64,000 nt of DNA from Coprobacillus sp. (GTDB lineage: Bacteria; Bacillota_I; Bacilli_A; Erysipelotrichales; Coprobacillaceae), in contig JAVWHX010000001.1 of NCBI GenBank assembly GCA_036639875.1, positions 87,155 through 151,154 on the forward strand, read 5' to 3'. Shown piece by piece: positions 3,235 through 62,663 of this stretch; the stretch's first letter is position 1, and the number at the start of each line of letters is the position of its first letter. The notes beneath the pieces are model-generated. The model was given only the letters and a program-made list of their open reading frames with translations. It was not told the DNA's origin and made no database searches. The position numbers were made by a program, and so were the translations under genes.

Positions 3235-6514
<3,280 letters not shown>

Positions 6515-31177: not shown

Positions 31178-31178
31178 T

Positions 31179-34098: not shown

Positions 34099-34108
34099 AG
34101 GAGAAAAA

Positions 34109-35506: not shown

Positions 35507-35608
35507 TTCGACAATATCCCCCTTTTTAATTATTCTATCAAAAAAAAGTCATAAATATGGTCACACCAAGACATAAAAAAACATATAACATATGAGTTAT
35601 AAGCTTTG

Positions 35609-36496: not shown

Positions 36497-36552
36497 ATAA
36501 TCACCTTGTTATATTATAAATGATAAAAACAAAAAAAGAAACACTAAGGTTT

Positions 36553-36951: not shown

Positions 36952-36992
36952 ATTGTCCCATCCCTTCATATAGGATATTATAGCATATTATT

Positions 36993-37220
36993 TTAAAATA
37001 AACTTATAATTTGTATACCATTATTAAAATTAACACCAACATGAAAATTATCATTTTTATCAAAATAAATAATCTGATACCATCGATGTTCTCCATCTTC
37101 TTTAATATAATCAGAACTATCATTCATTAACATCCCAATACCTGATAATAAAATTCCTATAACTAATAAAAGACTTGCAAAGAACAAAGTTAACTTATGA
37201 ACACTCTTTGATTTTAACAT
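36993..37220 (-). CDS. small membrane protein
   Basis: 75 aa with one TM helix. Overlaps the upstream gene's stop by 7 nt, which suggests co-translation. Confidence 0.4.
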   Translation of the reverse strand: MLKSKSVHKLTLFFASLLLVIGILLSGIGMLMNDSSDYIKEDGEHRWYQIIYFDKNDNFHVGVNFNNGIQIISLF

Positions 37221-37810: not shown

Positions 37811-38121
37811 TTTTCTAATTCCCCTTTTATATATTTATGAATTGTTTCAATTTGATACCATTCATTTAGAAAATCTTCAATATGTTGTTTTCCAAGTTTT
37901 GTAATCTTATAATACTTACGTAATCGGCTATTATGTTCAACAGAATATGTTTCTACATAATCATTACCTTCTAATCTTTTTAAAATAGGATAAAGCGTAG
38001 ATTCAGATATTTCTATATATTCACTAGTATCTTTAATAATCTGATAACCATACGAATCTTTTTGTACAAGACTTGCTAAAACACAAAATTCTAAAAAACC
38101 TTTCTTGAGTTGTATATCCAC
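37807..38121 (-). CDS. PadR-family transcriptional regulator
   Basis: KGFLEFCVLASLVQKDSYGYQIIKD ... STLYPILKRLEGNDYV. GTG start with GGGAGG RBS. Confidence 0.85.
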   Translation of the reverse strand: MDIQLKKGFLEFCVLASLVQKDSYGYQIIKDTSEYIEISESTLYPILKRLEGNDYVETYSVEHNSRLRKYYKITKLGKQHIEDFLNEWYQIETIHKYIKGELEK

Positions 38122-38144
38122 ATCAATACCTCCCTCTACACCAT

Positions 38145-38173
38145 ACTATACATTACATAGTATAATGTGTCAA
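38145..38173 (-). promoter_or_regulatory. sigma-A-type promoter of the PadR/DUF1700 operon with embedded inverted repeat
   Basis: Minus strand reads TTGACA-N17-TATAGT. A 7-bp inverted repeat ATACTAT/ATAGTAT with a 7-nt spacer spans the -10 region and is a candidate PadR operator. Confidence 0.65.
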
Positions 38174-38285
38174 GGAGTATAGTAAAAAAAGATAAATATC
38201 TCTTTATAAAAATGCAATAATGAATTTGAAGAATCCTATACAGCGATTAAATATGGAATTAATAAAGAATAAATAATTTCATAAT

Positions 38286-38331
38286 AAAAATCCTCTTTTA
38301 GTAGTTTTGATTATTCTACCATTAGAGGATA
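38286..38331 (-). terminator. rho-independent terminator closing the 24.5-kb operon
   Basis: ATCCTCT ... AGAGGAT outer stem with partial inner pairing, followed on the minus strand by TTTTTATTAT. Lies 35 nt downstream of the giant ORF's stop. Confidence 0.5.
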
Positions 38332-38364
38332 TTTTATAATTTCTTATAAAAACTGCTTTTCTTT

Positions 38365-41300
38365 TTAATTCTGTATCATCTTTCTTTTCTTATATAACAC
38401 AACTAATAATGCACTTATTGAAATAAATACTGTACCTATAACCACCCAATCTAATGGGAATCCATTATTTATTTTATTGACTTGTGGTTCATTCTTTAAC
38501 TGTTTTATATCCAAACCATTCTTCTCTAATTCTTTTATCTTTTCATTTTCACTGATTATTTCTTCTTCAGCTTCTAGAATTGATTGTTTTTGATACGTTT
38601 CGAATTTTCCTTCCTTTGCATTATATTTTGTTACATAAGCTTGTCTTTCTTGACTATTCTTTGATTTCTGTTTCTCTACTTTTTCAATAATTTCTTCTTT
38701 TTCTTCACTCGTTAACACTGTCTTCTCAGTATCACTATTCTTATTTGAAACGATTATCATTTCAGCTTCTTCTAATAGTGTTAACCCTTCTTCATCTAAC
38801 TGTATAAGTTCGTTTTCAAAGGTTTCTACATCTCCTTCTTTACTTTCAATGTTCTCAACTGGTGCATCAAACAATGAGAAAAAGCTAGTTTTCATAAAGT
38901 CAAAGAATCCTATATCTTTTGATTGACTTTCTACATCAATTGTTTTTCCTGAAAGATAATCAAATCCAACCAATGTTCCATCTTTATATCTGACAAACAT
39001 TATTGTTGTATCATTTTCCATAGTTCCACTGATTTCAACAATATCTTCATTCCTGAATCCTTCTGGAGTCTTAATCTCTCCTATTACATTCAACAATTTT
39101 CCATTTTCTTGTAAGATACACTGTATTTGTTTTCCATTGTAAACATCAACAATAACTTGTATCCCTCTTTTTTCCAAGTGTCCATCTATGATATGAAGTT
39201 TACCTCGTTTAACAAGTAACATATCATTCACTTCTTTATTGTTTGTTGTTGAATAGGTTGAATAGTTCTTAATCTGATATCCTTGATTCTCTCCGCTATA
39301 TATTTCCTTTGTCTCTAAGAGTTCTCCTAAGATAGCTGCTTTTCTCTTTTTACTGTCTTTTAAACTCACTATCTCCTGTTCCTTACTCAAGACTTCATTA
39401 TGATATAAATGGATATAGTCTCCTTGCCACTTCATATCATTATCTTTAACTCCATCATCTACAAGATAATAATAGCGATTCTTATATGTAGATACACTTT
39501 GTATAACATCTTCTGCCTTTACAAGATAATCATATGATTCTTTTCCATATGAAACTTTTATTTCTATATCTGTTTGATAATCATATCCTATTGTCAGAGT
39601 TCTCTCTTTGACTGTATATTCCTTTTCAGTACTTCCATAAGATAACTTCACTTGGATACCTTTATCTTGATACGCTGATAGAGAATCATTAAATTCTATG
39701 TTAATTCTATCTGTACCTGATGAATAAACATTTAATTTTGGTAATTTCTTTTCTATTGTTGCCATTCTTGCCTTACTGCTTAATGTTCCTAAAGATGGTG
39801 TTCTAGGAATATAATCTAATCTTGCTTCTCCTTCAAAGAGTCCATCTAATACCGAGTAGGCTGTACTATAATCTCCTGGCACTGCCAATCCTTCTTGATA
39901 TTTAGGTGTCGTATTCCCAGATACAACAGATGGTAAATAACCATGAGTGTCAAATGTAAATAATGGTGATATTTTTTTATTGGTTGCATCAATTGCATAG
40001 TAATAGCCTCTAGATGGAATTGTGATTTGATTTCCCTTTCCAGCTACAATGGAAGTACTATTATCTTTCCCTAAATTATAGTTTCTATCTTTATACCATG
40101 TATAATCACCATCTTCAAGGATAATTGTTTGAGGAGATACATCATTTCCTTCATAATAAGTCTGTCCTTCTACAACTTTTGCAGTAGTGAAGTAATTACT
40201 TAAATATGCCAAAACCGATGACCATATAGTATCTTCATTCACTTTTAACTTCAATGATATCCTTTGGAATTGACACGTTACTGACGAGATTGTAACATCC
40301 CCCTCTTTTGATTTAATAACCAAATCGTACATTTCTGATGGTTTATTAGCTGAGTAAATCTTATATGTCCCATCTGGTAAATCTGCATGAACTCTAAAAA
40401 CATGTTTTGTATAATCTATTGGTGTAAAACTAAAGTCATTCTTCCCGTTAACTGCACTAAAATCTCTACCTAATTCTAGAGTCGCATACACAGACATTTG
40501 ATTTGTTGCCCAAGCCAATCCTGGACGCTTTGAATTCTTAGTAGTTCCAGTCACTGGATCATAGACATTTGTCAACAAGTCATAATCACCAATATCCGCT
40601 TCTGTAATGACTTCAATATGTTCTCTAGTTGGATCTTGCCATATGCCTGCATCCTTTGCTTTGATACCATTTAATGTAGAATTCTCTTCAATCTTTATTC
40701 CTAATATATTCTTATCTTCTACAATGTCTCGATAATTATATGTAACGAAATTACTTTTCTCTTTATCAACACTGCTAACTCTTGAATTATGAATCAGATA
40801 ACCTCTCAATCTTTTAATAGGCGTAACTCCCTCAACTTCTTGAACATAACCAAATAAACCACCTGCATAAGATGAAGCATGAACATCAATATTAGATACA
40901 TATCCACCATATGATGAAAAATTCGGATTATCTAAAATAACACAACCAGCAATACCACCTGCATAATTATTCTTAGCAGTTATCTTTGTATCTCTTACAA
41001 TTGCATAACGAGTAGTAATATTTGTATCCATTCCATAACTACCGCCAAAGAACCCTCCTGCATAGTTATTTGCCTCAATTTCACACCTTGCAACTACATT
41101 ATGCCAATCTGTTGACTTTACAGTTTTATGACCTGAAAAACCAATAATTCCTCCTGCATAATCTTTAGTTGTTTTAACCTTTGTATCATATACCGCACAC
41201 CAATAAGGAGGTGGTGAATATACTTTGTTTTCAATGTCGGCTTCTCCATCTGTTATAACATTACCTGACCCTACAATACCACCTGCATACTTTTCTGCTT

Positions 41301-44300
41301 GAACATCGGCATTAACCACTGTAACTGTATAACAACCGCCTCTACCTACTACACCTCCAGCTGCATATTTTGCACGCACATTAGCAAATCGAACTTCACT
41401 ATTCACCACCGAATTATTACATTCGCCAGCGACTCCTCCTGCATTAAATCTTTCTGCATTAACAGTCACATTTTCAATTATAGAATTGGAGACATTACCT
41501 TTGCCTAATATTCCTCCTATTCCCGAACCACCTTTAAGATTTATGTTTTTTGCATTAATATCATAAACAATTCCTGTCCCAGTCCCAACTGCACCTCCAA
41601 TATAATAACTAGAGATAGTTGAATTAATAGTTATATCTTGAAGAGAGACTCCATCAAGTTCAGAATTATTTATGTTTGCATAAGTTACCCCAAAAATTCC
41701 TCCATGATTTGTTCCATTTCCTTCAATTAACACATTCTTTGCGCTATAATTTGTTGAAATTTTTGTCGTATTATAACCGCCTATACCCCCTATGTTTGAT
41801 TTTCCTTTAAGCGAAACATTTTCAACTGATATGTCATTGTTGGAAGTAGCTTTTAAATAAGTTACATTTTGATAACCAACTATTCCTCCTACCGAAGTAC
41901 TTTCGCTCGCATTAACAATTATATTCTTACCTGTTATATTTTGCATACCTCCACTGCAACTTCCTACTAACCCACCAACTGATCCATTTGTACCAGTAAT
42001 TACCGTCTTATAAGTTCCTTCTATCAGAATTTCGGAAACTTCCACATTTTTGATATTACCTACATTATTTCCAATCATCCCTATTATCGAACCATTAAAA
42101 AGGTTTGCATTTAACTTACTATTTTTAAATACACAATTCTCTAAATCTGCTGAGTTTTGTTTTATGATTCCCATTGCTCCTTTATTTGGCGCTGATGTTT
42201 CATAATTTATGTTGATATTATCAAATGTTATATCTGATATTCCACTCATACTATTTTTAATTAAATTATATCCTTGTGAATCATTAAATGTTAAGTTTTT
42301 AATAATACTTGTTGCTTTATCTTGACCTATAAATCTATTTACAGCTACATCTAATACTGGGTTTTTTATGCCCTCAAAGTCTATTATCCCAATTATTTTA
42401 AAGTTCTCTGATGATTCTTTATGATTCGCAACTATATTTTGCCATTGTTGGCTATTACTTATCTCCCAATAAACTGGTCCTTGATAATCCACCATGCTTG
42501 ATAATGTCATTATTGCTGGGTTCTTTTTGTTTTTTAATATAACATTTAATTTATATAAGTCTAAAGCCTTTAACTTCTTTGAAGTAATTGTACATACACT
42601 GACATCATTCTTTGTTGTTTTATCAATTGATAATTCTGTCATATCATCAATTGTTATGTTTTGAATATCAAATCCTTCATGATGAACTTCAACTTCAACT
42701 TCATATGTCTCTCCCATTTGTTTGGAATTGATAACTGACATTTTCACATTATCTGAGCTTAAGTATTTTGACTGTTGATCTGGTAATAGTTCTCCATTTG
42801 TATTCTTAACTTTAGGAAGCGCTCCATTTTCTACTTCTGAATAATCAAAGGCATTTCCCATCTTAATAGTATATAGATATGTATCTTTATTAGATAACTG
42901 TTCTCTTGTTAGAAGTCCTGTCGCATCATCAACACCTATATCCATATTGTTAAAATATTGTCCACTATAGGCATAATTATCTTTATCTATTGGATAGCTA
43001 TTCTTTTTTGCAGCTATACGATGCGCATAGTTATAATCCGCTTTACTTAACATCATACTTCCTACACTTAAACAATTACGCGATGATGTATTAACAGAAA
43101 TACCACCATTATATTCATTACTTGATTCGATGATTACATCTGAATAACATCTTTGGATTTTTCCCTCTTCATTAGCTACTCTAACACCAACTAATCCTCC
43201 ATTATTCATTAAGCTTTTAATTTTTCCAGATGCATAACTATCTAATAATACACCTGAGCTGCCAAGTTTTCCTACTATCCCAGCAGCAGATGGTGAAATT
43301 TCTGTTCTTGAAGTGTCTAATTCAATTTCAAAATCACTCACATAACAGTGATTAAGTTTACCATTTAAAGTACTAGTCATACCAGAAATGGTATTTGATG
43401 TTGCCGTGTTTGATGGTACACTCTTTAATTTCATATCTTTGATAGAACAGTTTTTAATTTCAGACATCATTCCCGCTGTATTCACCAATCCCGAGATTAT
43501 TCCGTCTGTTCCTTCAAGAGATATATCTCTGATATGTATATTACTAATTTCTCCTATTGTTGTATTTATCAAAGCAGTTGAAAGAGTTGTATCTCTCATC
43601 CACTCAAATCCTTGAATTCTTACATTTTTAAATGTTCCATTCATTGCATCTATTAATGCACTAACTTTAGAAAAATCAGAAGGTGGGTTGATATTTGAGA
43701 TTGTATGCATTCCTATGAGTTTACCATCTGCATCATATTTTCCTCCGTCAAACTTCCCAGTAAACTTAGTCAAATAAATGCTGTTATAATTACTTACCGT
43801 TGAAAAGTCTAAATCTGTTTTTAATCGATAATTTTGACTTTGATTACTTGCCATAATCATCCAATCATTAAAACTATTAATCGGTTTATAGAACTCTGCT
43901 TTTATACTGCTGTCTGTCACAGTTGCACTGTTCTCTGTATGTGTAGAACGATAATCAAACTTTGATATCTTATATTCTGATACATAGACTTTTGGATTAC
44001 TGACTTTTACTTTGACTTCATAAAAATGATTAACAACCTGTTGTTCAAAGATAATACAATCCACATTATCTACTGTAATATTTGATATGATATCATTGTT
44101 TGGATTGGTCATCTTGATTGTTACATCTGCATAGTCTTCTGTTTGTTTTGTAACAACACTATCGACCACTTTTGGTGCAATGCCATCTTCAACTTCAGGA
44201 AGTTTTATATAAGGTTGATACTTATCCATACAGCTGTCCATTTTAAGTTGAGGATAATATCCTAATTCAACTAATGAATCTACTTCAAAAGTATTTTCTT

Positions 44301-47300
44301 TATTGATGTTTGTATCATAGAAATCCTTATCCCAAAGTTGTTTCTTTGACGTATACTCAGAACATTTTATCGCATATTGCGGATTTTCTGATACAAGATA
44401 GACATTTTTATTTACTGCTGAGCCATTGCTATGTCGTATTGGATGCAATGATAAATTATATCCGCCATCAATAGGTCTATCATTAACTGTATCCGTTGTA
44501 AACTTATACATATCACCAACAACAAATATATTTTCTATAAGAGGATTTCTATAATCTGCAGTTATTATTCCTGAATAATTCGAATTTGCATAAATATCAG
44601 TAATTGCATAGATATTCTTTATTATTCCAGAAGAGTATTGAGTCACAATTCCTCCATCATTTCTCACATATATATGTCCATTCTTTGTTTTATTATAGAT
44701 ATAACCATTTTCAATGATTCCGAAGTTATTTCTGACAAAAACTGTAGAATTTACATTTGTTCCTACCATTTTAACCCAACTTTCACCATCGAACTCTATG
44801 ATAAAATTATTAATCTTTCCATAATTATCTCTCATAAAAGAGGTTGAACGAAATTGATCTCCTAATGCATTTGGTGCGTATATGATATTCTCCATAATTC
44901 CATAGTTATTTCTTACAACATTATAACCTAAGTCATCCCCAGCAACTCCTACAAACCTTACATTCTTCAATGTTCCAGACTTCCCAACATCAAAATTAGA
45001 ACGCCTTCCTTTCCCTAGAGAAAGTGTATGTCCTTGAAAATCTAATGTACCATTAAATGTAAAATCACTTAAAAATGGCCATTGTGTTTCCACAATATCA
45101 TTAACAACTATATAATTTCCCCATGTATCATTTTTAATATATTGAAAATCACTTATGGACTTTATTACATATGTGAGTTTATCAGATTCTACTTCACATT
45201 CATCTAAAACAATAACTCGTCCATGATATTGAATTGATATTTCAAACTTATAACTTTTTCCATTCTCCAAATAGACTGTTCTTGCTTGACTAACAGGCTT
45301 AATCTTTCCATTTTCATATGTCAGATGATTTTCACTCACCGTACTTATCTTATAGTCATCTTTTCCTATCACATTCGTTTCATACTGTGTAATGTAGTAG
45401 TTCTCTACATTTTGTAGTAATCCTGCATTATCTGTTAACGTTTCTTCTAATGATATGACCTTTTGATTCTTCGCCTCTTGTAAAAGTAACAATTGTTCGT
45501 TTCTGCCTTTTCCAAATGACCATCGCATATAGGCTGCATTTGTTGGAACCACAATAACATTTTCAGTTTGATGTCGACCTCCGATATATTTCTTTTCTTT
45601 ATCATAAAATACAGTTGGACCATTAAGTTTATAATAGATATCTCCTGGTGTTACTTCTATATAATCAGTAGAATTATAGGCAGTGTGATTGGATTGAAAT
45701 CCTGATCCAACATCAAGAAAAGCATCATTTATTATATTAACACCAATGAAAGCATCTTTTGGATTATCTATTTGAATCATGTTGGAGTTATTTAGGTTCT
45801 CAATTCTTCCTTGAACCCTTATATTTTTCCATTGATAGTAATTATTAATGACTGTTCTATCAAAATAAACACCCATTCCATCTGCATATGTCTGATTGTA
45901 AAATCTTTGAACTACTCTATTGTTAGTATCGTAGGCTAGCATTCTTAATAAGCCAGCACCAAAATCTTTTAAATATAATCCTTTTGTTGAATCAACAGGA
46001 AGATAATCAGTAACAAAATATCCTTCCTTATCTATAATATGCCCTTCATCATCTATTCCTTTATTCATCATGACTTTCTCTTTATCTATATTTCCTATAA
46101 CACTTTGATTATCATAAGTAAATTGCATATCATTCAGCTCTATGCTTCCTTCTATACCAAGTGTTGGTCTAAATGTAAATGTCTTAAATGTGAAGTTTCT
46201 TTGTAATGTCCCTGCTGTTTGTCCATCATTATACTGTGCTGCTACAAATCTTATCTCATAGTTATCTTCATCACTTAATGATTCAAATCGCATCTTTTCG
46301 ATTTTATCACCTATTAGATATGTATGTGACTCTATAACTTCTTCTCCTCTTACTAATTGAATTGTATATTTATCATCTAGTAATGTTTTATCAATATCAT
46401 TGACTTGTAAACCATAAAACTCGAAGAACTTCTGACCTTGAAAATAATCTTCATATATAATTTGTGGTTCTCTTTTCTTTGTAATGAAATTATCTTTACT
46501 TATCATTGTTTGTAAATCATAGATATATCCACCTTGATTTGCTTTACTTAAAACTTTCATTATATATTTCGTTGATGGACTTAAAGTTCCTTCTGTCATA
46601 GTAATATGAAGACTTCCACTCTTCTCTGCACTTGTTTCAAAATATGCACCATTGATAAATGCTTGCCATGGTGTCACTCCAGATAATAACAATTCTTTAC
46701 TGACACTTAACAAAATCTCTGGTTTATTTTTTTCTCCTTGTTGGATAATTAATTGTTTCTTTGTATCATCATAAAACTTCTGTATATCTACATTATCAAA
46801 CATCTCTTTTTGAATAGTGATTCCTACTTTATCATTTTTATCTGATGTTAATTCAAATGTTATTTCATTCATCAAATCAGCAAGTGATGTTGATGACTTT
46901 GTATTCATGTTGATATTAATAGTTGCGCTAGTCCCTAATATATTCGTAAATGAATTTGTATAATTTAATGTTCCATTCCCTATTGATGCTGAATAGAACG
47001 CTGAATTACATATTTCTTTTTTCTTATCTCCTGTATTATCTTCTATATTATAATTTGCTATTGCCTTTATATACAGTTTCTGTGAGAATGGCAAATTATA
47101 TATTGATAAATCTATGTCTTTATCTTCTTTACTAATTTGTATTTCTTTCGCTGTTTCTTTTACACCATCTTTTTCATATTGAATATTGAGTGGTTCTCCA
47201 CCCTCATCACATATCTTTACTGTATAATAACTATCTATTATAGCATTATCTATATCACTTAAACTCAACTTAAGTTTAAATGATCCTGCTTTGTTTTCAT

Positions 47301-47640
47301 TTATCTTAACTTTTACTACTGGTGTAGTTTTCGCTGTTTTCACTGTCCCTTTTATCTTCTCTGGTGTTGTTGGGATAGCATGAGAAAAACGATCTAAGAT
47401 TTCCATTGTATAACTATATGTTGAATTACTTTTTAATACTGGACTAGTTGAGAAGTCTAGCGTTTCTCCTTTGTTTAATTTTTTCATGATATCCGAACTG
47501 ATATCTGCCACAATTTCTTCTTTTGTTTGAGTATCTATAAAACGAATACTTCCTTTTGCAGCATATGGTAGTGTATTTTTATAAATGTTTTCTAATGTTT
47601 TATCTCCAGTTATATAATCACTATCATTTTCTAATTTCAA
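38365..47640 (-). CDS. giant envelope protein, distal 3,091 codons: FN3-like array, beta-helix/GLUG repeat blocks, C-terminal TM anchor
   Basis: Open frame of 9,276 nt. It has no SD sequence and only a TTG as a possible start. It lies in the same frame as ORF 47644-49113, separated by one TAA plus one codon. Contains GG[ILVAF]xG (GLUG-type) repeats. The C-terminus WVVIGTVFISISALLVVLYKKRK is a TM anchor. No LPXTG. Confidence 0.8.
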   Translation of the reverse strand: MKLENDSDYITGDKTLENIYKNTLPYAAKGSIRFIDTQTKEEIVADISSDIMKKLNKGETLDFSTSPVLKSNSTYSYTMEILDRFSHAIPTTPEKIKGTVKTAKTTPVVKVKINENKAGSFKLKLSLSDIDNAIIDSYYTVKICDEGGEPLNIQYEKDGVKETAKEIQISKEDKDIDLSIYNLPFSQKLYIKAIANYNIEDNTGDKKKEICNSAFYSASIGNGTLNYTNSFTNILGTSATININMNTKSSTSLADLMNEITFELTSDKNDKVGITIQKEMFDNVDIQKFYDDTKKQLIIQQGEKNKPEILLSVSKELLLSGVTPWQAFINGAYFETSAEKSGSLHITMTEGTLSPSTKYIMKVLSKANQGGYIYDLQTMISKDNFITKKREPQIIYEDYFQGQKFFEFYGLQVNDIDKTLLDDKYTIQLVRGEEVIESHTYLIGDKIEKMRFESLSDEDNYEIRFVAAQYNDGQTAGTLQRNFTFKTFTFRPTLGIEGSIELNDMQFTYDNQSVIGNIDKEKVMMNKGIDDEGHIIDKEGYFVTDYLPVDSTKGLYLKDFGAGLLRMLAYDTNNRVVQRFYNQTYADGMGVYFDRTVINNYYQWKNIRVQGRIENLNNSNMIQIDNPKDAFIGVNIINDAFLDVGSGFQSNHTAYNSTDYIEVTPGDIYYKLNGPTVFYDKEKKYIGGRHQTENVIVVPTNAAYMRWSFGKGRNEQLLLLQEAKNQKVISLEETLTDNAGLLQNVENYYITQYETNVIGKDDYKISTVSENHLTYENGKIKPVSQARTVYLENGKSYKFEISIQYHGRVIVLDECEVESDKLTYVIKSISDFQYIKNDTWGNYIVVNDIVETQWPFLSDFTFNGTLDFQGHTLSLGKGRRSNFDVGKSGTLKNVRFVGVAGDDLGYNVVRNNYGIMENIIYAPNALGDQFRSTSFMRDNYGKINNFIIEFDGESWVKMVGTNVNSTVFVRNNFGIIENGYIYNKTKNGHIYVRNDGGIVTQYSSGIIKNIYAITDIYANSNYSGIITADYRNPLIENIFVVGDMYKFTTDTVNDRPIDGGYNLSLHPIRHSNGSAVNKNVYLVSENPQYAIKCSEYTSKKQLWDKDFYDTNINKENTFEVDSLVELGYYPQLKMDSCMDKYQPYIKLPEVEDGIAPKVVDSVVTKQTEDYADVTIKMTNPNNDIISNITVDNVDCIIFEQQVVNHFYEVKVKVSNPKVYVSEYKISKFDYRSTHTENSATVTDSSIKAEFYKPINSFNDWMIMASNQSQNYRLKTDLDFSTVSNYNSIYLTKFTGKFDGGKYDADGKLIGMHTISNINPPSDFSKVSALIDAMNGTFKNVRIQGFEWMRDTTLSTALINTTIGEISNIHIRDISLEGTDGIISGLVNTAGMMSEIKNCSIKDMKLKSVPSNTATSNTISGMTSTLNGKLNHCYVSDFEIELDTSRTEISPSAAGIVGKLGSSGVLLDSYASGKIKSLMNNGGLVGVRVANEEGKIQRCYSDVIIESSNEYNGGISVNTSSRNCLSVGSMMLSKADYNYAHRIAAKKNSYPIDKDNYAYSGQYFNNMDIGVDDATGLLTREQLSNKDTYLYTIKMGNAFDYSEVENGALPKVKNTNGELLPDQQSKYLSSDNVKMSVINSKQMGETYEVEVEVHHEGFDIQNITIDDMTELSIDKTTKNDVSVCTITSKKLKALDLYKLNVILKNKKNPAIMTLSSMVDYQGPVYWEISNSQQWQNIVANHKESSENFKIIGIIDFEGIKNPVLDVAVNRFIGQDKATSIIKNLTFNDSQGYNLIKNSMSGISDITFDNININYETSAPNKGAMGIIKQNSADLENCVFKNSKLNANLFNGSIIGMIGNNVGNIKNVEVSEILIEGTYKTVITGTNGSVGGLVGSCSGGMQNITGKNIIVNASESTSVGGIVGYQNVTYLKATSNNDISVENVSLKGKSNIGGIGGYNTTKISTNYSAKNVLIEGNGTNHGGIFGVTYANINNSELDGVSLQDITINSTISSYYIGGAVGTGTGIVYDINAKNINLKGGSGIGGILGKGNVSNSIIENVTVNAERFNAGGVAGECNNSVVNSEVRFANVRAKYAAGGVVGRGGCYTVTVVNADVQAEKYAGGIVGSGNVITDGEADIENKVYSPPPYWCAVYDTKVKTTKDYAGGIIGFSGHKTVKSTDWHNVVARCEIEANNYAGGFFGGSYGMDTNITTRYAIVRDTKITAKNNYAGGIAGCVILDNPNFSSYGGYVSNIDVHASSYAGGLFGYVQEVEGVTPIKRLRGYLIHNSRVSSVDKEKSNFVTYNYRDIVEDKNILGIKIEENSTLNGIKAKDAGIWQDPTREHIEVITEADIGDYDLLTNVYDPVTGTTKNSKRPGLAWATNQMSVYATLELGRDFSAVNGKNDFSFTPIDYTKHVFRVHADLPDGTYKIYSANKPSEMYDLVIKSKEGDVTISSVTCQFQRISLKLKVNEDTIWSSVLAYLSNYFTTAKVVEGQTYYEGNDVSPQTIILEDGDYTWYKDRNYNLGKDNSTSIVAGKGNQITIPSRGYYYAIDATNKKISPLFTFDTHGYLPSVVSGNTTPKYQEGLAVPGDYSTAYSVLDGLFEGEARLDYIPRTPSLGTLSSKARMATIEKKLPKLNVYSSGTDRINIEFNDSLSAYQDKGIQVKLSYGSTEKEYTVKERTLTIGYDYQTDIEIKVSYGKESYDYLVKAEDVIQSVSTYKNRYYYLVDDGVKDNDMKWQGDYIHLYHNEVLSKEQEIVSLKDSKKRKAAILGELLETKEIYSGENQGYQIKNYSTYSTTNNKEVNDMLLVKRGKLHIIDGHLEKRGIQVIVDVYNGKQIQCILQENGKLLNVIGEIKTPEGFRNEDIVEISGTMENDTTIMFVRYKDGTLVGFDYLSGKTIDVESQSKDIGFFDFMKTSFFSLFDAPVENIESKEGDVETFENELIQLDEEGLTLLEEAEMIIVSNKNSDTEKTVLTSEEKEEIIEKVEKQKSKNSQERQAYVTKYNAKEGKFETYQKQSILEAEEEIISENEKIKELEKNGLDIKQLKNEPQVNKINNGFPLDWVVIGTVFISISALLVVLYKKRKMIQN
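40846..42200 (-). repeat. degenerate tandem coding repeats of GLUG type (predicted beta-helix), block 2
   Basis: At least 13 copies of the xGG[ILVAF][VIFAG]G motif, spaced about 20-30 aa apart (VGGLVG, VGGIVG, IGGIGG, HGGIFG, IGGAVG, IGGILG, AGGVAG, AGGVVG, AGGIVG, AGGIIG, AGGFFG, AGGIAG, AGGLFG). Confidence 0.65.
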
Positions 47641-47643
47641 ATC

Positions 47644-49113
47644 TTATATTTTCATCATATTTGATGATAATATATCTTTCATTTCATAATTAACTTTGAT
47701 TGGTTTGACATTATCTTTAATAGCTAATGTCTTAGTTTCTGTTAACTCTAAAAATGTTTCTGCTGTTTTCTTTCCAAATTCATCATAATACTGATAAACT
47801 CCTTCTACATATATAGTTGAATCTGGTGGTAATATAGATATTTCTGCTTGTACACTCTTTAAAAATTGTTTTCTCATTAAGAGTGTTCCTTTTGAATCAT
47901 AGACATTAAAACGTATTCCTCTTATGATCTTATTTGATGGATCATTAATTGTAAGATCAGTATGAATCGTATAAACCCATGTTTTTAACTCATTATTTGT
48001 AACTGTTGGTTTTATATATGTTGTATCTGGTGGAGCTGGATCTTGAGGGTCATCTTCGCCTTCACTATCCCCTTCTCCATCGCCTTCGTTTTCTCCGCCT
48101 TCTCCTACACCTTCTCCTGGCTTATCACTCTCAGATCCCCCAGTATGATCACCTCCAGTGTTACCTTCATCAACTGGTGGTGTTGGTTTCACTTCTGGTT
48201 TCTCTGGTTCAATTGGACTTGGTGTTTGCTCTCCGGCCTCTGGTAAACTCCCCTCATCTCCTATATCATCTTTATCACTATTTTCCCCATTATCACCTTG
48301 CACTTTATCTTCAGATGGTTGTTTCTCTTGTTCATTTTGAATAGGTTCTCTTTTCTCCGCAGGCTTTTTATTCTTTTCTTCTTCTCTTTTTTCTATTTCT
48401 TCTTTAATTTCTTCCTCTTTTTTCTCTATCTCTTTTACTGTTTCTTTTACAATTCCTAATTGCTTTAAGAAATCACTATAATTCATTGTTTTCCCATTAA
48501 GTGTTATCTTTGCGTTTTGAAGTCCTCTAACAGCTAAAAAGTTTAGTTTTCCTTCATTATAACAATATGCATTGATATAAGTTTCTGTGAAATTAGCAAA
48601 TGAATTGACAGGTAAAACATATGTTTCTAACAATGTTTGTATCTTAATATCTTTATGATTCATAAAAATACCATTCTTCAAATAAGCCATTGTTATTTTC
48701 TCATTATCCACTTGTTTTCCACTTGCATCAAAACTATGACCTCCACTTAAATACATCCCTTGTGCACTTGTTAAAACATCAAAATCCTCAGTTATAAGCT
48801 GAGGTTGTGCTTCTATGAATCGTATCCCAGCTCCTTCTTTAATAAACATAGGAAACTCTAAATCTACCTTTTTCTTGTCATTACTTACATAATATGAATC
48901 ACCATTTATATAGATAGGTTCAGTTTCACTGACTTTTACTAGTGAAACAGCATCAGCTTCATAAATATCTTCTTTATTCAATGATTCTTCAATATCATTT
49001 TCTTCTAAAACATATCCATTTTCATCAATATAAGAATGAACAATATATGTATTCATTTGAATAAAAACCAACGCCGATAACATAACAACTGCAAGAATAA
49101 TTAGTTTTTTCAT
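47644..49113 (-). CDS. N-terminally anchored envelope protein (489 codons); probable proximal part of the giant protein
   Basis: Strong RBS GGAGGTG. N-terminus MKKLIILAVVMLSALVFIQ is a signal or anchor. Then a juxtamembrane domain with a KITLNGKTMNYSD motif, an E/K coil, an acidic Pro/Gly spacer and the first FN3-like module. Ends at a TAA that is in frame with the next ORF. Confidence 0.8.
   Translation of the reverse strand: MKKLIILAVVMLSALVFIQMNTYIVHSYIDENGYVLEENDIEESLNKEDIYEADAVSLVKVSETEPIYINGDSYYVSNDKKKVDLEFPMFIKEGAGIRFIEAQPQLITEDFDVLTSAQGMYLSGGHSFDASGKQVDNEKITMAYLKNGIFMNHKDIKIQTLLETYVLPVNSFANFTETYINAYCYNEGKLNFLAVRGLQNAKITLNGKTMNYSDFLKQLGIVKETVKEIEKKEEEIKEEIEKREEEKNKKPAEKREPIQNEQEKQPSEDKVQGDNGENSDKDDIGDEGSLPEAGEQTPSPIEPEKPEVKPTPPVDEGNTGGDHTGGSESDKPGEGVGEGGENEGDGEGDSEGEDDPQDPAPPDTTYIKPTVTNNELKTWVYTIHTDLTINDPSNKIIRGIRFNVYDSKGTLLMRKQFLKSVQAEISILPPDSTIYVEGVYQYYDEFGKKTAETFLELTETKTLAIKDNVKPIKVNYEMKDILSSNMMKI
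48025..48444 (-). repeat. low-complexity coding spacer (E/K-rich, then acidic Pro/Gly-rich)
   Basis: aa 224-363: KEIEKKEEEIKEEIEKREEEKNKK ... PSPIEPEKPEVKPTPPVDEGNTGGDHTGGSESDKPGEGVGEGGENEGDGEGDSEGEDDPQDPAPP. Locally GC-rich, which generates spurious antisense ORFs. Confidence 0.8.
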
Positions 49114-49130
49114 AGTTACACACCTCCTTC

Positions 49131-49823
49131 TTATTTCATTTCATCTAAATCATCAACATTGTTATATAACAAAATATTTTTATCTTGGTTTATTAACACA
49201 CCATTTTTTAAATCAATTTTATAATCAGCACATGTTGCTTCCAATGTATCCGTTATTATTTTATTTGTTGTTATTTTTTTTGTTTTCGACTCATATAAAA
49301 CAAATGCCTTTGAATTCATATTTACATAAATACTTGAGAATGCATCTAACTGCTTTTGTTCTCCATTAATTGTAATCTGAGTTTTCTCTAAAAATATATA
49401 TGTTGATTCTCCATCATATAAAAATCCAAGATCACTTACTATTTTATTATCATTAAAAATCCCTTCTTGTTGAGAAGCAAAAACAGAAAAATGATTAGCT
49501 CTAAAATATTGTTTTGATCTTGCGTTGACATAAATCATATCTTTTGGTAAAACAATACTATTTGATGATTCCAAATAGAGTGGCATTGCACTTAATGTCA
49601 CATTACTTGTGCATCTTCCTTCACATGTTTTTTCTTTATCATAATAAAGTTCTGTTCCTTTTTTATAAGAAATGATTGTTCCAGCTCCAGGTTGAGTAGC
49701 TGTCTCTTTTAAAGTGAAAGTTGAACTATCATTTAAAAAGAAATAAAGCGCTGCTGCCATAACCAAAAATATAAAGCTTGCTATTATTGCATAAATAAAC
49801 GATTCTTTTTTCTTAAGTTTCAT
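49131..49823 (-). CDS. bitopic membrane protein carrying only the shared juxtamembrane domain
   Basis: 230 aa. N-terminal anchor FIYAIIASFIFLVMAAALYFFL and a QITINGEQKQLD motif. GGAGGT RBS. 4-nt overlap with the upstream gene. Confidence 0.75.
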   Translation of the reverse strand: MKLKKKESFIYAIIASFIFLVMAAALYFFLNDSSTFTLKETATQPGAGTIISYKKGTELYYDKEKTCEGRCTSNVTLSAMPLYLESSNSIVLPKDMIYVNARSKQYFRANHFSVFASQQEGIFNDNKIVSDLGFLYDGESTYIFLEKTQITINGEQKQLDAFSSIYVNMNSKAFVLYESKTKKITTNKIITDTLEATCADYKIDLKNGVLINQDKNILLYNNVDDLDEMK

Positions 49824-50306
49824 ACTTTCTTACCTCCATTTACCAAAAAATATAATTCATACAAAAATAAATATATGGAATACATTGTTATACATATTCC
49901 TGTTAAAATATAAACAACGAGAAACATCATTGGTGTATGCATGATAATCATATATTGAAATATCATGTTGTTAATGATAAGTGCCACAGCACATAACAAT
50001 ATATTAATTGCTACATAAACAAACATCTTTAAATGTTCTATAAATACCAAACATAAAATCGCCTGACATATATAAAACATGACATGAACAGCATTAAGAG
50101 ATTGGAAACGAAAAACAGAACTGATTATAAAACACATAAAAGAAAAACAGCTTATAAGTTCCAATCTTGCTTTTGTATTTAACATCATCAATAGATGTTT
50201 CCATATATATATTTTTTCATTTTTCTTAGATAAAATGACAATTGTATAAGTACATAATACAAGTAAGATAGAAACAACTATATATTCTTTTAATTGTGCA
50301 ATATTA

Positions 50307-50323
<17 letters not shown>
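49820..50323 (-). CDS. small polytopic membrane protein (4-5 TM), unknown family, last gene of the ATPase cassette
   Basis: 167 aa and very hydrophobic. Overlaps the epsilon-like gene by 17 nt and the next gene by 4 nt. I could not recognise an a-subunit LRLxxN-type motif. Confidence 0.7.
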
Positions 50324-52788
<2,465 letters not shown>

Positions 52789-52792
52789 ATGG

Positions 52793-54109
52793 TTATTCCA
52801 TAAATGCAGAAAAAATCTGTACCATTTCTTCTACATCTTTTGCAGAATATTTATATTGTTTAAATGCTTCAAGAAGTTTTTGACCACGTCTTAATTTTGT
52901 TTGAAGTGCTTCACCCATTTCATCAATATTCGCTAACTCATAAATATCTCGTGTTTCCAAATAACTTAAAAGTTCACGTCTTGTTTTACTTCCTATTTTT
53001 TTAACTTGTTTTTCTTGTACACTTCCTCCTAATCTTGATACACTCAAACCATAATCAATCGCCGGTTTTTGCCCTTTATCAAAATTCTTCTTACTTAATA
53101 CAATTTGTCCATCAGTGATTGAAATAATATTCGTACTTATATACTCTGTTATATCTCCACCTCTTGTTTCCATGATAGGTAAAATCGTAATACTTCCTCC
53201 ACCAACATGTTGACATCCTTTTTCTAAAAGTCTTGAATGTGTATAGAAAATATCACTTGGATATGCATCTCTTCCTGGTTCTTTTCCTGTCAATAATGCT
53301 ATTTCACGATAGACATCTGCATGACGTTTTAAATCATCAATAACTACCAATACATCCTTACCCTGCATCATATAATCTTCTGCTATTGATAAACCAACAT
53401 AAGGTGTCAATGACATAACAGGAGGCTGTTCATCATTGTTCGCACAAAGGATAATTGTATGCTCCATTGCCCCTTGATACATAAGCTGTTGATAAATATC
53501 TTTAACTGACTTCTTTGTTTTCCCAATAGATATGTAAATACACAATACGTCTTTACTTTTTTGATTACAGATTGTATCTAAAGCAATTTGTGTTTTTCCA
53601 GTTTTTTTATCTCCAAGAATAAGTTGTCGTTGCCCTTTTCCAATAGGATACAATAAATCGATACCTGATATTCCTGTATACAACGGTCTATTAACACTGT
53701 TTCTTGACATTATTGATATTGCATTATGTTCAATGGGTTGTGATTTATAGTTTGCAAAATACTGTGCATTCATCTGATCTTTCCCAAACATATCGACAAT
53801 ATGTCCAATTGAATCTTCACTAAAAGTTGCTTCAAATTTTCTCCCCGTTAGTGTTGCTTCATCTCCTACATAGATATCCTTTTCTATCTTCACTAATGAT
53901 ACAATGACACTATCTTCTTTAATAACATTAATATATCCTTTTGCTTTATTCCCTATTTGAACTTCTTCAAAATAACCAGCGTTCATTAAACCTTTGATTT
54001 CTACAACATATTTGTATATGCGTATGATTCTTCCAGTTTCAAAAACATTAGTTGAAGCTTGCATATTATGAATCTTGCTTGTTATTTTTTCTTTCATAAA
54101 ATCATTCAT
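52793..54109 (-). CDS. F1 alpha-like subunit (C-terminally shortened)
   Basis: Walker A QLILGDKKTGKTQIALDTICNQ, VVIDDLKRHADVYREIALL, GREAYP-like GRDAYPSDIFYTHSRLLE, ITDGQIVL, and PAIDYGLSVSRLGG (arginine-finger region). 438 aa, against roughly 500 aa for typical alpha subunits. Confidence 0.9.
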   Translation of the reverse strand: MNDFMKEKITSKIHNMQASTNVFETGRIIRIYKYVVEIKGLMNAGYFEEVQIGNKAKGYINVIKEDSVIVSLVKIEKDIYVGDEATLTGRKFEATFSEDSIGHIVDMFGKDQMNAQYFANYKSQPIEHNAISIMSRNSVNRPLYTGISGIDLLYPIGKGQRQLILGDKKTGKTQIALDTICNQKSKDVLCIYISIGKTKKSVKDIYQQLMYQGAMEHTIILCANNDEQPPVMSLTPYVGLSIAEDYMMQGKDVLVVIDDLKRHADVYREIALLTGKEPGRDAYPSDIFYTHSRLLEKGCQHVGGGSITILPIMETRGGDITEYISTNIISITDGQIVLSKKNFDKGQKPAIDYGLSVSRLGGSVQEKQVKKIGSKTRRELLSYLETRDIYELANIDEMGEALQTKLRRGQKLLEAFKQYKYSAKDVEEMVQIFSAFME

Positions 54110-54121
54110 ACTGCCTCCATT

Positions 54122-54873
54122 CTACAGACTAAAATCATATAATCTGTCTTTATATCTAATTCGATACCCTTCTAATATTTCGCTATCTTTCAATTGTATT
54201 AATTCTTTTGAAGATTCAACAGGATTAACTTCTTTATTTGAATAAATATATATATGTGGATCATTGTTAAAAATATAATCTTTCAAATAACTTATAAACA
54301 AATATAAATCAAATGACTGTTTTTCTTCACAATACTTCTTAAAAATAGTAAATTGGGCTGGAAGAGTTTTTAAAACATCATTTATCACTTCTATTTGTTG
54401 ATTTGAATTAAGGTTCATCAAACCATAATAAACATCTATATCAAATAATGATAAAAGGTCTTCATAATCTTGAACTGAAATAAAGTTCTCTTTTTTTAAT
54501 TCATTAATTGCTTCTAACGATAAATTTAAAGAATTTATTTCAAAATCACATTTCACCATTCTATAATGTTCATCAAAACGATTGTTTTGATAAACGGCCT
54601 GTTTGATAAAACTTTGTTCTCTCTTTTTTTCTTCTTTTTCAATTTTTGTATTTATAATCTCATGAGACGAGATACTGAGTAAGTCGATTTCAGCTTGCTT
54701 TTCTAATAATTCTGCAGTTTTCTTTTCTAATAACTCATCATAAAGATCTGCCATAACAACTCCTACTTTTTTATATATCTGTTGATGAATATCTTGACAT
54801 ATTTTTTTAACAGCAAAAAGTAAGAATGCAGCTAATGATACCATCACTAAAATAACTGCTATAAAACTTATCA

Positions 54874-54874
<1 letters not shown>
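54122..54874 (-). CDS. b-like peripheral-stalk protein with unrelated C-terminal globular domain
   Basis: 250 aa. One N-terminal TM helix (ISFIAVILVMVSLAAFLLFAV), an approx 70-aa charged helical segment (ELLEKKTAELLEKQAEIDLL ... EKEEKKREQ), then an approx 140-aa domain of unknown type. Occupies the position of atpF/atpH. Confidence 0.55.
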
Positions 54875-56707
<1,833 letters not shown>

Positions 56708-59700
56708 CTACTTCTCATAGAGGTATGTCGTCGAATATGAATCAGTTTTTTCAAAAACGTCACCATTTTGTAAATAATAATTAATCATAATACGATAATA
56801 CCCCAAATTTTCTAATGATAGTGGGAGTTCCATTGTGTAATAACCACCGAGTTTTTCACTAAACAAGGTTCCATTTTCATTCATGAGCACTCCTGTAAAA
56901 CTTGACTTACCATCACTGCTAATAACTGTATATTCAACTTTCTTAATAGAATTTAAGTTACTTGCATTCTTATAAGATATAGCTATTTTAGAAGGATCAC
57001 GATTTGGATTTTCAACTGTTACATCTCCATAAGCAATTCCATTTTCACCAGGTGTCATACGAACATCTTCCCAAATCAAATAATCTTCTTTATCTTTTTC
57101 AAATGTTTCATGATCTAACGAAGCTATACTTCCTTTAACATCTGGATTATTATCACAAATACCATCCCTATTCATATCTATACTTGCATAAATAGCAATT
57201 CTATAATTAGTGTTTGGTTTCAAATCTTTTAATGTCATTGTATAATTTTTTCCAGGATCATAAACTTTATATAAGTCTTCAGCTGCAGTTACATCTTTCC
57301 ATGAACTATCTTCTTTTTCAAAATAACGAACATAGTAAACAGAATTATATCCATTCTCAATCAGATAATCACTCATTATAACTTGAGAATTATCCGCTAC
57401 AGAAGTATCCACTTTCATATCAATTGTTTTAGTACCTTGATGGTATTCTGGAACGAGATTTGTAAATGTAATAGGCATTGTAGTAGGGGCTATTTTAAAT
57501 CCTGCTATTGAAGTTCCTAAAATAATACTTTCATCAATTTTTCCATCGGTTACCTGATTTATAGTGGTTTTAATTTGATACTGTGTATCATTTTTCAATT
57601 TATGTTTTGCAACATTTAACATAAAACTAGGATTCATATTTGTTTGATAATTATCTCCTACTTTATAGCCATCATACATTCCGGCATTGATCATATCTTG
57701 ATTACTCATAATCACATTACCAAATTCATCAAGAATGCTATACCTAATAAAGAATCCACTCACTTGGTCAATATTATAAGAAAGAACCAATCGTTGTACA
57801 TCATATGTTTCAATCTTATATTGTAACTTTGAAGAACTGATGTTAACACTACCTTTTGTCTTTACTTCTTTCATAAATGCACCAGATTTTTTTGCATCAA
57901 GTAATAAACTATCTTGTTTATTCACTTTTGCAGTGAAAGTAATACGATATGATGTATCTTTCTTTAAATTGTTTAAGACAATAGAAGATTCCGTTGTCAA
58001 GTTTGTTACGTTAATTGATTGTACGATTTCTTCATTTGTTAGTAGATTTTTAATATGTGCATCAATAAATCGCTTTCCACTACTATCAGCATCAATTTGG
58101 CTAACTCCACTTATATCCACACCATATAAGTTAATAGAAGTCATGTTTTGTCCATAAGAATCATTGACACTGATAGAAGGTACAATTTTCGTAAGTTCAA
58201 AATTTTGTGCTTCATCAGTAACCAACTTTGTTTCATTGATCTTTTTTACAACAAAATAATTAAGTTGTTCTTGTGGAGCTGTCCCAATAATATAAGCCAT
58301 CCCATTTTGATCAGCACGAATTGAATAGTTATTTGTTAGGTTTCTGAATTTAGAAGTAACAACAAAATCTTGTTTTTGTTGAATTGTTTCATAATCTAAT
58401 AAATTATTTAATGTAAATATTGAACCAGATGCCGTTGTTGAAGTCTTAATAATTGCACCACTTTGTTCATCAAAAGCTATATAATTACCGAGAACATAAT
58501 TCCCTGATTTCTTTGTGATATATTGTAAAGCAAACCTATCTCTATTTGTAAGTTCCCAACTCATATTGTTTGAATCATAACAAAGAGATACGTCAGTTCC
58601 AATTGTCTTACCTATAAGCTTATCCAGTTTGGCAGTAGAGATATATCCTATATTTGAAGCATTAAGAGTCATATATGTAGAATAATAACTTGTTGGATTA
58701 TTAACATCATAGAATCTTACATTAACCCCTGCTATTTTCTTATTAAGCAAATCAAGGTTTGATGATCCAACTGGATCTTTTAATTCTATTTTAATTTGAT
58801 TTTTTTCTAAATCAGCAACAACATTGTATTTAAGTTTGCTTATAATATCATTGTTGAAAGTACTAGAGAAATCAATAGGTTGATACATGATATCTAAAAT
58901 ATTTGTTTCATTTTTGTATGATAAATTATATAACTGTCTGCTTATTTGAGGGATGAATTGTCCGTTTTTTAAGCTCGATGATATAATCGAATTAAACGTA
59001 ACACTTCCCCATGTATTTTCATCTACATCGATTGCATCACCATAAGAACCATTTACCAAAAACTTTGTTTCATTTTTCTTTATTGTCTTATCATTATCAC
59101 TATAACGATATTTCAATGTCAAACTTGTTTTATTTGTATTATAATTAGAAACACTTGGATAAATAGTGAATTTTGGTTCAATTTTAGGTGCATCCTTAAT
59201 CCCAGAATTTAAGACATAAGCAGTGCTTAGTTTGTTTGCTAAAGCTGCATACTGAGGATGTTCATAAGGATAAATCTTATCTCCCTCACCAGCCCCAATT
59301 TCACTATAACTTAATGCATACGCAAAGTTATACTTATATCCTCTTGACATACCTGAAGATAATGCATTTGAAGTTGCTTCTGCCTTGCCTGAATATGTAA
59401 CATTGACTCCACCGTATGTTGTATCCACACCTTCTCCAAAAAAGATTGCACATACAGGAACGTTACTGTTTGAAGGAGAAATCGCAATTTCTTTACGCAC
59501 CACCCATTCACCACTATTCTTTAACCCACCATCTAGCCCAAAATCATAAATTGGATTTTGATTAGCAGATAATAAATTGGCAAATTGATTACTTTCAAAT
59601 GCATAATAATACATTTTTCTAGCTAATTTCGCATAATTATCGTAATTTGCCTCTAAGCGATATCCTACAATCGCATTGTCATCTAACTTTGAATCAACTG

Positions 59701-62608: not shown

Positions 62609-62663
62609 TACATCCTCCTCTATCAAAACATCACTTTAAAACAATAAAACTATCTTTTATTAA

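Follow-up and report, generated by a model that had tools for sequence, protein, structure and literature searches.

A private in-frame stop codon divides the gene of a giant surface protein in a Coprobacillus metagenome-assembled genome

Two long open reading frames (ORFs) follow each other in phase on the minus strand of the window, i.e., the whole 64,000-nt stretch of DNA analysed here, and are separated only by a single TAA, which raises the question of whether they represent two genes, one gene whose stop codon is put to use, or one gene that has been interrupted in the organism or merely in its assembled sequence. On the minus strand, the junction reads ...AAT ATG ATG AAA ATA TAA GAT TTG AAA TTA GAA.... 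The 5′ part of the gene (47647..49113, minus strand) comprises 489 codons from an ATG start and, with the stop included, forms the ORF 49113..47644, while the TAA itself is codon 490 (47644..47646, minus strand). The 3′ part (38365..47643, minus strand) continues in the same frame with 3,092 sense codons and a terminal TAA. In the NCBI annotation, the 5′ part is a protein of its own (MEG0547268.1, RR518_00610), and the 3′ part is entered as a protein of 3,091 aa that begins at TTG (MEG0547267.1, RR518_00605); counted from this TTG, the distal ORF extends over 47640..38365 (3,091 aa). Translation of 49113..38365 yielded 3,583 codons with stops only at codon 490 and at the final codon, confirming the initial annotation, which had described an ORF ending in TAA and a long open frame in phase behind it. 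With this base composition, a run of 3,091 codons should contain about 282 stops, and the probability of finding none is about 3e-129; in the two remaining frames of the same region, 341 and 457 stops were counted.

Codon 490 is GAA (Glu) in five further assemblies of this species, comprising three metagenome-assembled genomes (MAGs) from NCBI (GCA_036639035.1, GCA_036641255.1 and GCA_036637275.1) and the Logan assemblies of the runs SRR25820360 and SRR25820372. At base 47646, the window has a minus-strand T (plus-strand A), whereas all of these sister assemblies have G (plus-strand C), at seven of the seven loci that cover the site; the change is a G-to-T transversion on the coding strand. 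In sisters with a sufficiently long contig, the product is called as one protein of 3,582 aa (MEG0276230.1, MEG0452151.1, MEG0683453.1). The full gene of 10,749 nt was compared in two of the MAGs, in which 47646 is the sole difference from the window, and it is again the sole difference in the remaining three sisters over the 3.7–10 kb compared. The sisters are distinct strains: a comparison over 30 kb shows 39 variable sites, of which 13 are private to the window. In a block of about 17 kb, the window and GCA_036639035.1 are identical apart from this single change; that it happens to create a stop is odd, and speaks against a real allele.

The same continuity is found in distant homologues with about 25% identity: eight proteins run uninterrupted across the site, and 23 tblastn matches in 22 loci span it, none with a stop. 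The aligned position is conserved as Lys in eight of eight homologous proteins. The 14 complete homologous ORFs measure 2,849–3,640 codons and share the layout from an N-terminal to a C-terminal transmembrane segment; the N-terminus is Lys-rich and is followed by the transmembrane segment, and a C-terminal hydrophobic anchor ends these 14 as well as one incomplete homologous ORF (15 in total). Rather than consistently carrying two genes, as had been considered in the initial annotation, the orthologues carry one, and its reading of the two ORFs as a single gene cut by one stop was borne out by the sisters with GAA and by the distant homologues. Judged by these sequence comparisons, the two ORFs form a single gene that a private nonsense substitution has broken, and the TAA is either an ordinary premature stop or a miscalled base and not a recoding signal, because the G-to-T change occurs only in this MAG and the gene is uninterrupted in sisters and distant relatives. 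The two simplest options put forward at the outset, a recent nonsense mutation and a sequencing or assembly error, are those that this comparison supports.

The architecture of the encoded protein shows what the stop would separate. Only two strongly hydrophobic segments were found, both by Kyte-Doolittle hydropathy: residues 1–25 at the N-terminus (49039..49113, minus strand), a signal or anchor, and residues 3552–3576 at the C-terminus (38386..38460, minus strand), a hydrophobic anchor followed by the basic tail KKRKMIQN. It was therefore rightly noted beforehand that the upstream ORF has a signal or anchor and that the distal ORF has no N-terminal export signal. In the 5′ part, the hydrophobic anchor is followed by a conserved N-terminal domain and by an acidic linker rich in Pro, Gly and Glu. 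FN3-like module 1 comes next, and of FN3-like module 2 only one and a half strands are included. The 3′ part contains the remainder of module 2, more FN3-like modules, Gly-Gly repeat regions and a coiled-coil-like Glu/Lys-rich tail with the C-terminal membrane anchor. Module 1 (residues ~370–461; 47731..48006, minus strand) is complete upstream of the stop and is modelled as an FN3-type beta-sandwich with a pLDDT of ~85–93 and matches to tandem FN3 folds. Module 2 has approximate boundaries (residues ~472–592; 47338..47700, minus strand) and a model pLDDT of only ~31–59, and the homologue alignment is continuous across it. Residue 490 falls inside the second predicted beta-strand of this module (model strand 129–138, corresponding to residues 486–495), which is moderate evidence, at a local pLDDT of ~44, that the stop breaks a structural unit rather than separating units. 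No family was recognised in the protein with Pfam and NCBIfam. The initial description as FN3-like and beta-helix modules held for the former, since the junction region models as tandem FN3-type domains with three-FN3 fragments as the best PDB fold matches (E ~1e-8). The Gly-Gly repeat regions may form a beta-helix; a single-sequence model has a mean pLDDT of 52 and its best fold matches are all parallel beta-helix proteins, none better than E = 0.03.

We consider the chances about even that the TAA is a genuine, very recent loss-of-function nonsense allele of the strain, as far as can be judged from the assembled sequences. The nonsense event would have to be very young, because no second lesion is found in the 9.3 kb downstream. 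In this scenario, a single G-to-T transversion in the RR518 strain would have turned codon 490 from GAA into TAA. The only ribosome-binding site serving the whole frame of 3,582 codons is the Shine-Dalgarno site AAGGAGG (49123..49129, minus strand), which precedes the start ATG (49113) by 9 nt, and translation from there would halt after 489 residues. The product would be a membrane-anchored stub that comprises the N-terminal domain, the acidic linker and two FN3 modules, the first intact and the second broken, and the distal 3,092 codons would remain untranslated or at most be reached by weak reinitiation at a TTG that lacks a Shine-Dalgarno sequence. Functionally, this would amount to the loss or truncation of a surface protein and not to a regulatory device. 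The other private differences of the window look natural: eight of the 12 private sites (stop excluded) are synonymous, and therefore the window consensus carries natural variation. In addition, the Logan assembly of SRR25820371 reproduces the private haplotype of the window over 9.5 kb with 0 mismatches. Frameshifts disrupt other members of the family in other MAGs, and one of them is identical in two independently built MAGs; therefore, real inactivation does occur in this surface-protein family.

The alternative with a probability somewhat short of even is a consensus or assembly base error, in which the organism has GAA and an intact gene of 3,582 codons and the T was miscalled, e.g., at low coverage or through oxidative G-to-T damage. 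Every other assembly has G at the site with the rest of the gene identical base for base, the 3,092 downstream codons are open with no sign of decay, and G-to-T is the classic artefact of oxidative damage, which counts against a real allele. The contig of SRR25820371 ends at 47656, ten bases short of the site, and therefore neither confirms the TAA allele nor shows normal k-mer support there. No repeat was found that explains this contig break near the site; we estimate the chance of a contig end this close to it at ~0.3–1%, and the break hints at poor or mixed k-mer support. However, the 152.9-kb MAG contig is exact where it was cross-checked, namely over the 9.5 kb shared with the Logan assembly, and its mostly synonymous private differences argue against a generally faulty consensus. 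Substitution errors are rare in Illumina consensus sequences, and a random error yields a stop in only about one in 20 cases.

A functional split or recoding, in which the TAA is tolerated and low-level readthrough or reinitiation at the TTG provides a short anchored product and a little full-length or distal product as a regulatory device, is very improbable. Apart from the downstream frame, which stays fully open, it could draw on the TTG in the second codon past the stop (47638..47640, minus strand), 4 nt downstream and on inspection of the sequence the only conceivable reinitiation codon, and reinitiation near a stop is possible without a strong Shine-Dalgarno sequence. However, the stop is not a conserved feature, as it is absent from all five sister assemblies, whose strains are 99.9% identical, and from all distant homologues. 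A G directly after TAA makes for efficient termination, and the fold of the 121 nt downstream of the stop revealed no RNA structure (z = 0.07 compared with shuffled sequences). The 64-kb window contains no tRNA gene, so no suppressor tRNA is encoded in it. Neither the TTG at 47640 nor any ATG, GTG or TTG in the next 120 codons is preceded by a Shine-Dalgarno sequence, and most genes of the operon have GGAG-type sites, in agreement with the initial annotation. Without an export signal, any distal product made by reinitiation would be mislocalised, and the stop is predicted to lie within a domain and not between domains. Regulatory readthrough and reinitiation at the TTG, both proposed initially, consequently find no support, given the unconserved stop, the terminator context, the unstructured downstream region and the lacking Shine-Dalgarno sequence. 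That the two halves act as a split protein through TTG reinitiation is very improbable as well. The resemblance to programmed readthrough or termination-reinitiation is limited to the geometry of an in-frame stop, an open frame behind it and a nearby possible start; unlike in programmed recoding, there is no stop conservation, leaky context, stimulatory structure or ribosome-binding signal. Slipped-strand phase variation, regarded as unlikely from the beginning, is dismissed because the site, AAAATA[T/G]AAGAT, is outside any repeat tract, and the change is a substitution and not a change in length.

That the ORFs are two neighbouring genes separate by nature, or that the genetic code reads TAA as sense, can practically be discarded: NCBI does annotate two proteins in the RR518 MAG, but the junction shows no conserved two-gene arrangement, homology and a folded module cross the site in relatives, which have one gene, the sister strains with GAA encode one protein, and TAA is the stop codon both of the gene itself and of 25 among the 39 window ORFs that reach 150 aa.

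Premature-stop alleles of a surface protein gene are known as PMSCs of inlA in Listeria monocytogenes (PMC12427964, PMC5131979). As in those, a single-nucleotide nonsense change here would truncate a surface protein, with loss of the C-terminal part and the anchor, and other strains are intact. In contrast to inlA, the allele is known from one metagenome-assembled genome only, hydrophobic segments at the two ends serve as anchors in place of LPXTG, and no phenotype or ecological association of the allele is known. The gene is also about 4.5 times as long as inlA. A further parallel is ebh of Staphylococcus aureus, which is annotated as two ORFs (ebhA/ebhB) in Mu50 and N315 and intact in MW2 and LAC (PMC3868527). 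In both cases, a giant surface-protein gene appears through one point lesion as two adjacent ORFs on the same strand and other strains show a single ORF; however, the lesion in ebh is a frameshift as opposed to an in-frame nonsense substitution, and the proteins are unrelated.

The split gene is the last one of a conserved operon that places an F1-like ATPase between giant surface proteins, in a non-mollicute host. The upstream genes of the same operon (49131..62626, minus strand) are, in order, a 1,972-aa surface protein with a collagen tract, a 518-aa transmembrane (TM) protein, a c-like subunit, a b-like subunit (250 aa), alpha-like, gamma-like, beta and epsilon-sized (116 aa) subunits, a 167-aa membrane protein and a 230-aa TM protein. 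The host belongs to the class Erysipelotrichia, which is close to the Mollicutes. F1-like "X0" ATPase clusters are described in mycoplasmas, Type 2 being the gliding motor of M. mobile and Type 3 being associated with MIB-MIP (PMC3369863, PMC12994834, PMC8406192). The operon shares with them extra alpha-, beta-, gamma- and epsilon-sized F1-like subunits beside very large surface proteins, clustered with unrelated, non-F0 membrane proteins (167, 230, 250 and 518 aa). The gamma subunit matches PF00231. In contrast to the mycoplasma clusters, the best match of beta is ordinary atpD and that of alpha is ordinary atpA, the latter below its cutoff, and a c-like subunit is present that lacks the ion-binding carboxylate. 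Membership in the mycoplasma Type 2/3 cluster families was rejected, as the scores of alpha (326 against a cutoff of 520 for MSC_0619; 399 against 600 for MMOB1660) and beta (395 against 570 for MSC_0618; 391 against 850 for MMOB1670) are far below the cutoffs. Of the accessory proteins, the 250-aa b-like, 116-aa, 167-aa and 230-aa ones were tested and match no NCBIfam model, including any for the mycoplasma-specific accessory families. As a tentative and rather unlikely combination, the TAA could be genuine and the gene could encode the largest of the surface components in an apparatus not described so far, namely a conserved operon of non-mollicute gut Bacillota with an F1-like ATPase between membrane-anchored giant surface proteins and a c-ring-like subunit without the carboxylate.

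For the annotation, RR518_00610 and RR518_00605 are pieces of one gene, to be flagged as disrupted or checked again with the reads, and when a long open frame is found behind an in-frame stop, near-identical assemblies resolve the case fastest. The stop itself is of little consequence. If the allele is real, it is a natural loss-of-function variant of a doubly anchored surface protein of about 400 kDa. If the reading as part of an undescribed apparatus were true as well, the RR518 strain and the sisters, which are 99.9% identical to it, would form a natural near-isogenic pair of knock-out and wild type for the role of this machine, be it adhesion, surface movement or protein handling. The operon with an F1-like ATPase outside the Mollicutes, apparently uncharacterised, is the more interesting part of the window than the stop.

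The giant gene that closes the operon lies on the minus strand (49113..38365) and is interrupted at codon 490 by an in-frame TAA (47646..47644), at which the coding strand reads ...AAT ATG ATG AAA ATA TAA GAT TTG AAA TTA GAA.... The initial annotation had described this split frame accurately: a 5' ORF of 489 codons (49113..47644, minus strand), with an ATG start preceded by AAGGAGG, was recovered, followed in the same frame by 3,092 further sense codons, open as far as the TAA at 38367..38365. The downstream stretch is unquestionably coding, because about 282 stops are expected in it from base composition, and 341 and 457 are present in the other two frames and none in its own. The window belongs to a 152,852-bp contig of the MAG 'Coprobacillus sp.' (Erysipelotrichales), and in its NCBI entry the two halves are represented as separate proteins, MEG0547268.1 (489 aa, RR518_00610) and MEG0547267.1 (3,091 aa, RR518_00605).

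Two neighbours of the giant gene, encoding 230 aa and 104 aa, were used to retrieve near-identical contigs of the same species. A single 3,582-aa product (MEG0276230.1, MEG0452151.1, and MEG0683453.1) is called after the 230-aa gene in three NCBI MAGs (GCA_036639035.1, GCA_036641255.1, and GCA_036637275.1). In two Logan run assemblies (SRR25820360 and SRR25820372), the contigs stop inside the giant gene and give partial products, which still cross codon 490 without a stop. This codon is GAA in all five sister assemblies, with G at coding-strand base 47646 in place of the T of the window. Over the full 10,749-nt gene, available in two of the sister MAGs, this base is the sole difference from the window, and so it is across the 3.7-10 kb that was compared in the remaining three assemblies. 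The sister assemblies are not copies of one assembly, since 39 variable sites are found across window positions 29,803..59,823; 13 of these are private to the window and, leaving the stop aside, eight of the twelve are synonymous. The core reading of the initial annotation, one gene carrying either a recent nonsense mutation or an error, is therefore supported by the GAA codon of the sisters and the single product called in three of them.

More distant homologues were also continuous over the site. A junction-spanning query recovered eight homologous proteins of about 25% identity, none of them interrupted there and all with Lys in the aligned column. In a scan of species-representative GTDB genomes, MAGs of uncultured gut 'Clostridia/Clostridium' contributed 29 loci, and query position 490 was crossed without a stop by 23 tblastn matches in 22 loci. 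The 14 complete homologous ORFs (2,849-3,640 codons) share a common layout, and at the C-terminus all have, like the window's protein, a hydrophobic anchor and then a basic tail. The GTDB scan returned distant relatives only and not the species itself, and a scan of JGI metagenomes with a junction-spanning protein found no relative.

Hydropathy analysis of the giant protein shows just two strongly hydrophobic segments, at residues 1-25 and 3552-3576. Nothing was detected in Pfam and NCBIfam, and a sequence search against the PDB gave nothing below E = 0.19. Residues 358-712 were modelled with AlphaFold from a five-sequence alignment, with position 490 set back to Glu. The model predicts a confident FN3-type sandwich at residues ~370-461 (pLDDT ~85-93) and two more, less confident sandwiches; the best PDB fold matches of the modelled region are three-domain FN3 fragments (E ~1e-8). 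It puts residue 490 in the second strand of the module after the first FN3, with a local pLDDT of ~44. Modelling of the Gly-Gly repeat region (residues 2170-2700) gave an all-beta repeat with a mean pLDDT of 52, for which the best fold matches were parallel beta-helix proteins without exception, though weak (best E 0.03).

We give a real nonsense allele an even chance. In its favour, an independent Logan assembly of SRR25820371 matches the MAG consensus exactly over 9.5 kb, including five window-private SNPs, and the window's other private differences look natural. In addition, paralogues of the giant gene are frameshifted in other MAGs, one lesion being identical in two of them. These frameshifts interrupt three paralogues (L029 at ~5660, L018 at ~5576, and L009 at ~5450), with homology resuming in another frame; none lies in a homopolymer, and the shared lesion is that of L029 and L018, whose MAGs (CAAEBO01/HGM13681 and USAE01/UMGS1531) were built separately. 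Several MAGs carry four to five paralogues of the giant gene.

A base error in the MAG consensus competes closely with this, at somewhat under an even chance. The stop base is the sole difference in a block of about 17 kb otherwise identical to GCA_036639035.1, and a change from G to T is a typical damage artefact. Furthermore, the Logan contig with the window haplotype (SRR25820371_93469) breaks off at 47656, ten bases away from the variant base, and the neighbouring contig of that run starts only at 38172. No repeat accounts for the break, and the contig's terminal 30-mer occurs only once in the window; the end could have arisen from low coverage or from a population mixed for G and T. At k=31, a plain SNP bubble should end at 47647 rather than 47656. 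No other independent assembly shares the private haplotype of the window.

The variable sites are unevenly distributed. The giant gene (38365-49113, 10.7 kb) has the stop as its only variable site among at least five assemblies, with 27 sites in the 12 kb upstream (49114-59823) and 11 downstream (29803-38364), the latter all in one cluster. Compared with GCA_036639035.1, the window shows 19 differences upstream of 47650 and none between 47645 and 32379. Such a pattern suggests that the segment is a mosaic or has recently recombined, or that it was carried by a sweep. Between 34649 and 34782, within a 465-aa ORF (34109-35506, minus strand), 11 substitutions in 134 nt separate the window from GCA_036637275.1, five of them non-synonymous and with identical surroundings; the patch has the look of a hypervariable stretch or of a short tract of recombination. 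Four synonymous changes in 32 nt form a lesser cluster at 56605-56636, where the 518-aa gene encodes its TM segment.

Regulatory readthrough and reinitiation at the TTG, both offered by the initial annotation, found no support. The stop lacks the defining features of programmed recoding: it is not conserved, its context is TAA-G, and the 121 nt that follow show no more folding stability than shuffled sequence (z = 0.07). The search for a suppressor tRNA, which covered the 64-kb window, found no tRNA gene. As for reinitiation, the distal ORF does lack a Shine-Dalgarno site, as had been claimed; none precedes the TTG at 47640 or any later ATG, GTG, or TTG within 120 codons, whereas most operon genes have GGAG-type sites, and according to hydropathy a product begun at this TTG would be without an export signal. 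Slipped-strand or transcriptional slippage is ruled out, since no run of A at the site exceeds 4 nt and the lesion replaces a base without changing the length; its position in non-repetitive sequence bears out the earlier dismissal of phase variation. An alternative genetic code is very unlikely from stop usage in the window, as TAA ends 25 of the 39 long ORFs in the window and the giant gene itself.

If the nonsense allele is real, translation would end at codon 490 and leave a membrane-anchored stub of 489 residues with one intact FN3 module, and the remaining 3,092 codons would be silent or nearly so. The event would be very recent, because nothing else in the gene has decayed. A polar effect beyond the giant gene was considered and judged unlikely, because a near-consensus sigma-70-type promoter (TTGACA-17-TATAGT, 38173..38145, minus strand) lies in the 243-nt gap ahead of the PadR-family gene pair (37807-38121 and 37214-37810, minus strand); an intrinsic terminator sought after the giant gene was not found. 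Read in this way, the finding is an ordinary strain-specific disruption of a large surface-protein gene, for which the premature stop codons of Listeria inlA (PMC12427964, PMC5131979) and the giant gene ebh of S. aureus, split as ebhA/ebhB in Mu50 and N315 (PMC3868527), are good parallels.

The operon around the giant gene deserves more attention than the stop codon itself. It (62626..38365, minus strand) encodes, in order, a 1,972-aa surface protein, a 518-aa TM protein, c-like, b-like, short alpha-like, gamma and beta subunits of an F1-like ATPase, a 116-aa epsilon-sized protein, a 167-aa membrane protein, a 230-aa TM protein, and the giant protein. The alpha-like subunit, with 438 aa, falls below the atpA cutoff. 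The order of those genes that tblastn can detect is repeated in four distant gut MAG loci (L001, L007, L025, and L026), in which the b-like and 167-aa genes had no tblastn match; alpha and beta are 56-65% identical to those of the window, the giant protein only ~25%. Ordinary c subunits carry an ion-binding carboxylate (Asp61 in E. coli, Glu56 in Bacillus PS3), which is replaced by Thr or Ala in the c-like subunit of the window (54874-55155, minus strand) and of the four loci (L001:3728-3901, L007:2564-2710, L025:2927-3070, and L026:2561-2707), although the RNPE loop motif is retained. This suggests a ring that does not translocate ions. The 1,972-aa protein (56708-62626, minus strand) contains a collagen-like Gly-X-Y tract at residues ~270-345, with weak NCBIfam matches to the collagen-like adhesins Scl and Lcl far below cutoffs, and the 518-aa protein (55139-56695, minus strand) a GGxGG-rich tract at residues ~232-305; each tract adjoins the N-terminal membrane anchor on its outer side. 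Pairwise BLAST of the operon's four TM-anchored proteins, run to see whether they share an N-terminal docking domain, gave nothing significant. In the literature found, mycoplasmas are the only organisms for which F1-like clusters of this broad type are described. The N-terminally anchored 230-aa protein (49131-49823, minus strand) belongs to a family without a Pfam or NCBIfam model, with 234 representative clusters at E <= 0.001 and 57 at 1e-10 in a library of 1.8 billion proteins, nearly all of ~220-300 aa, and could mark the system in surveys.
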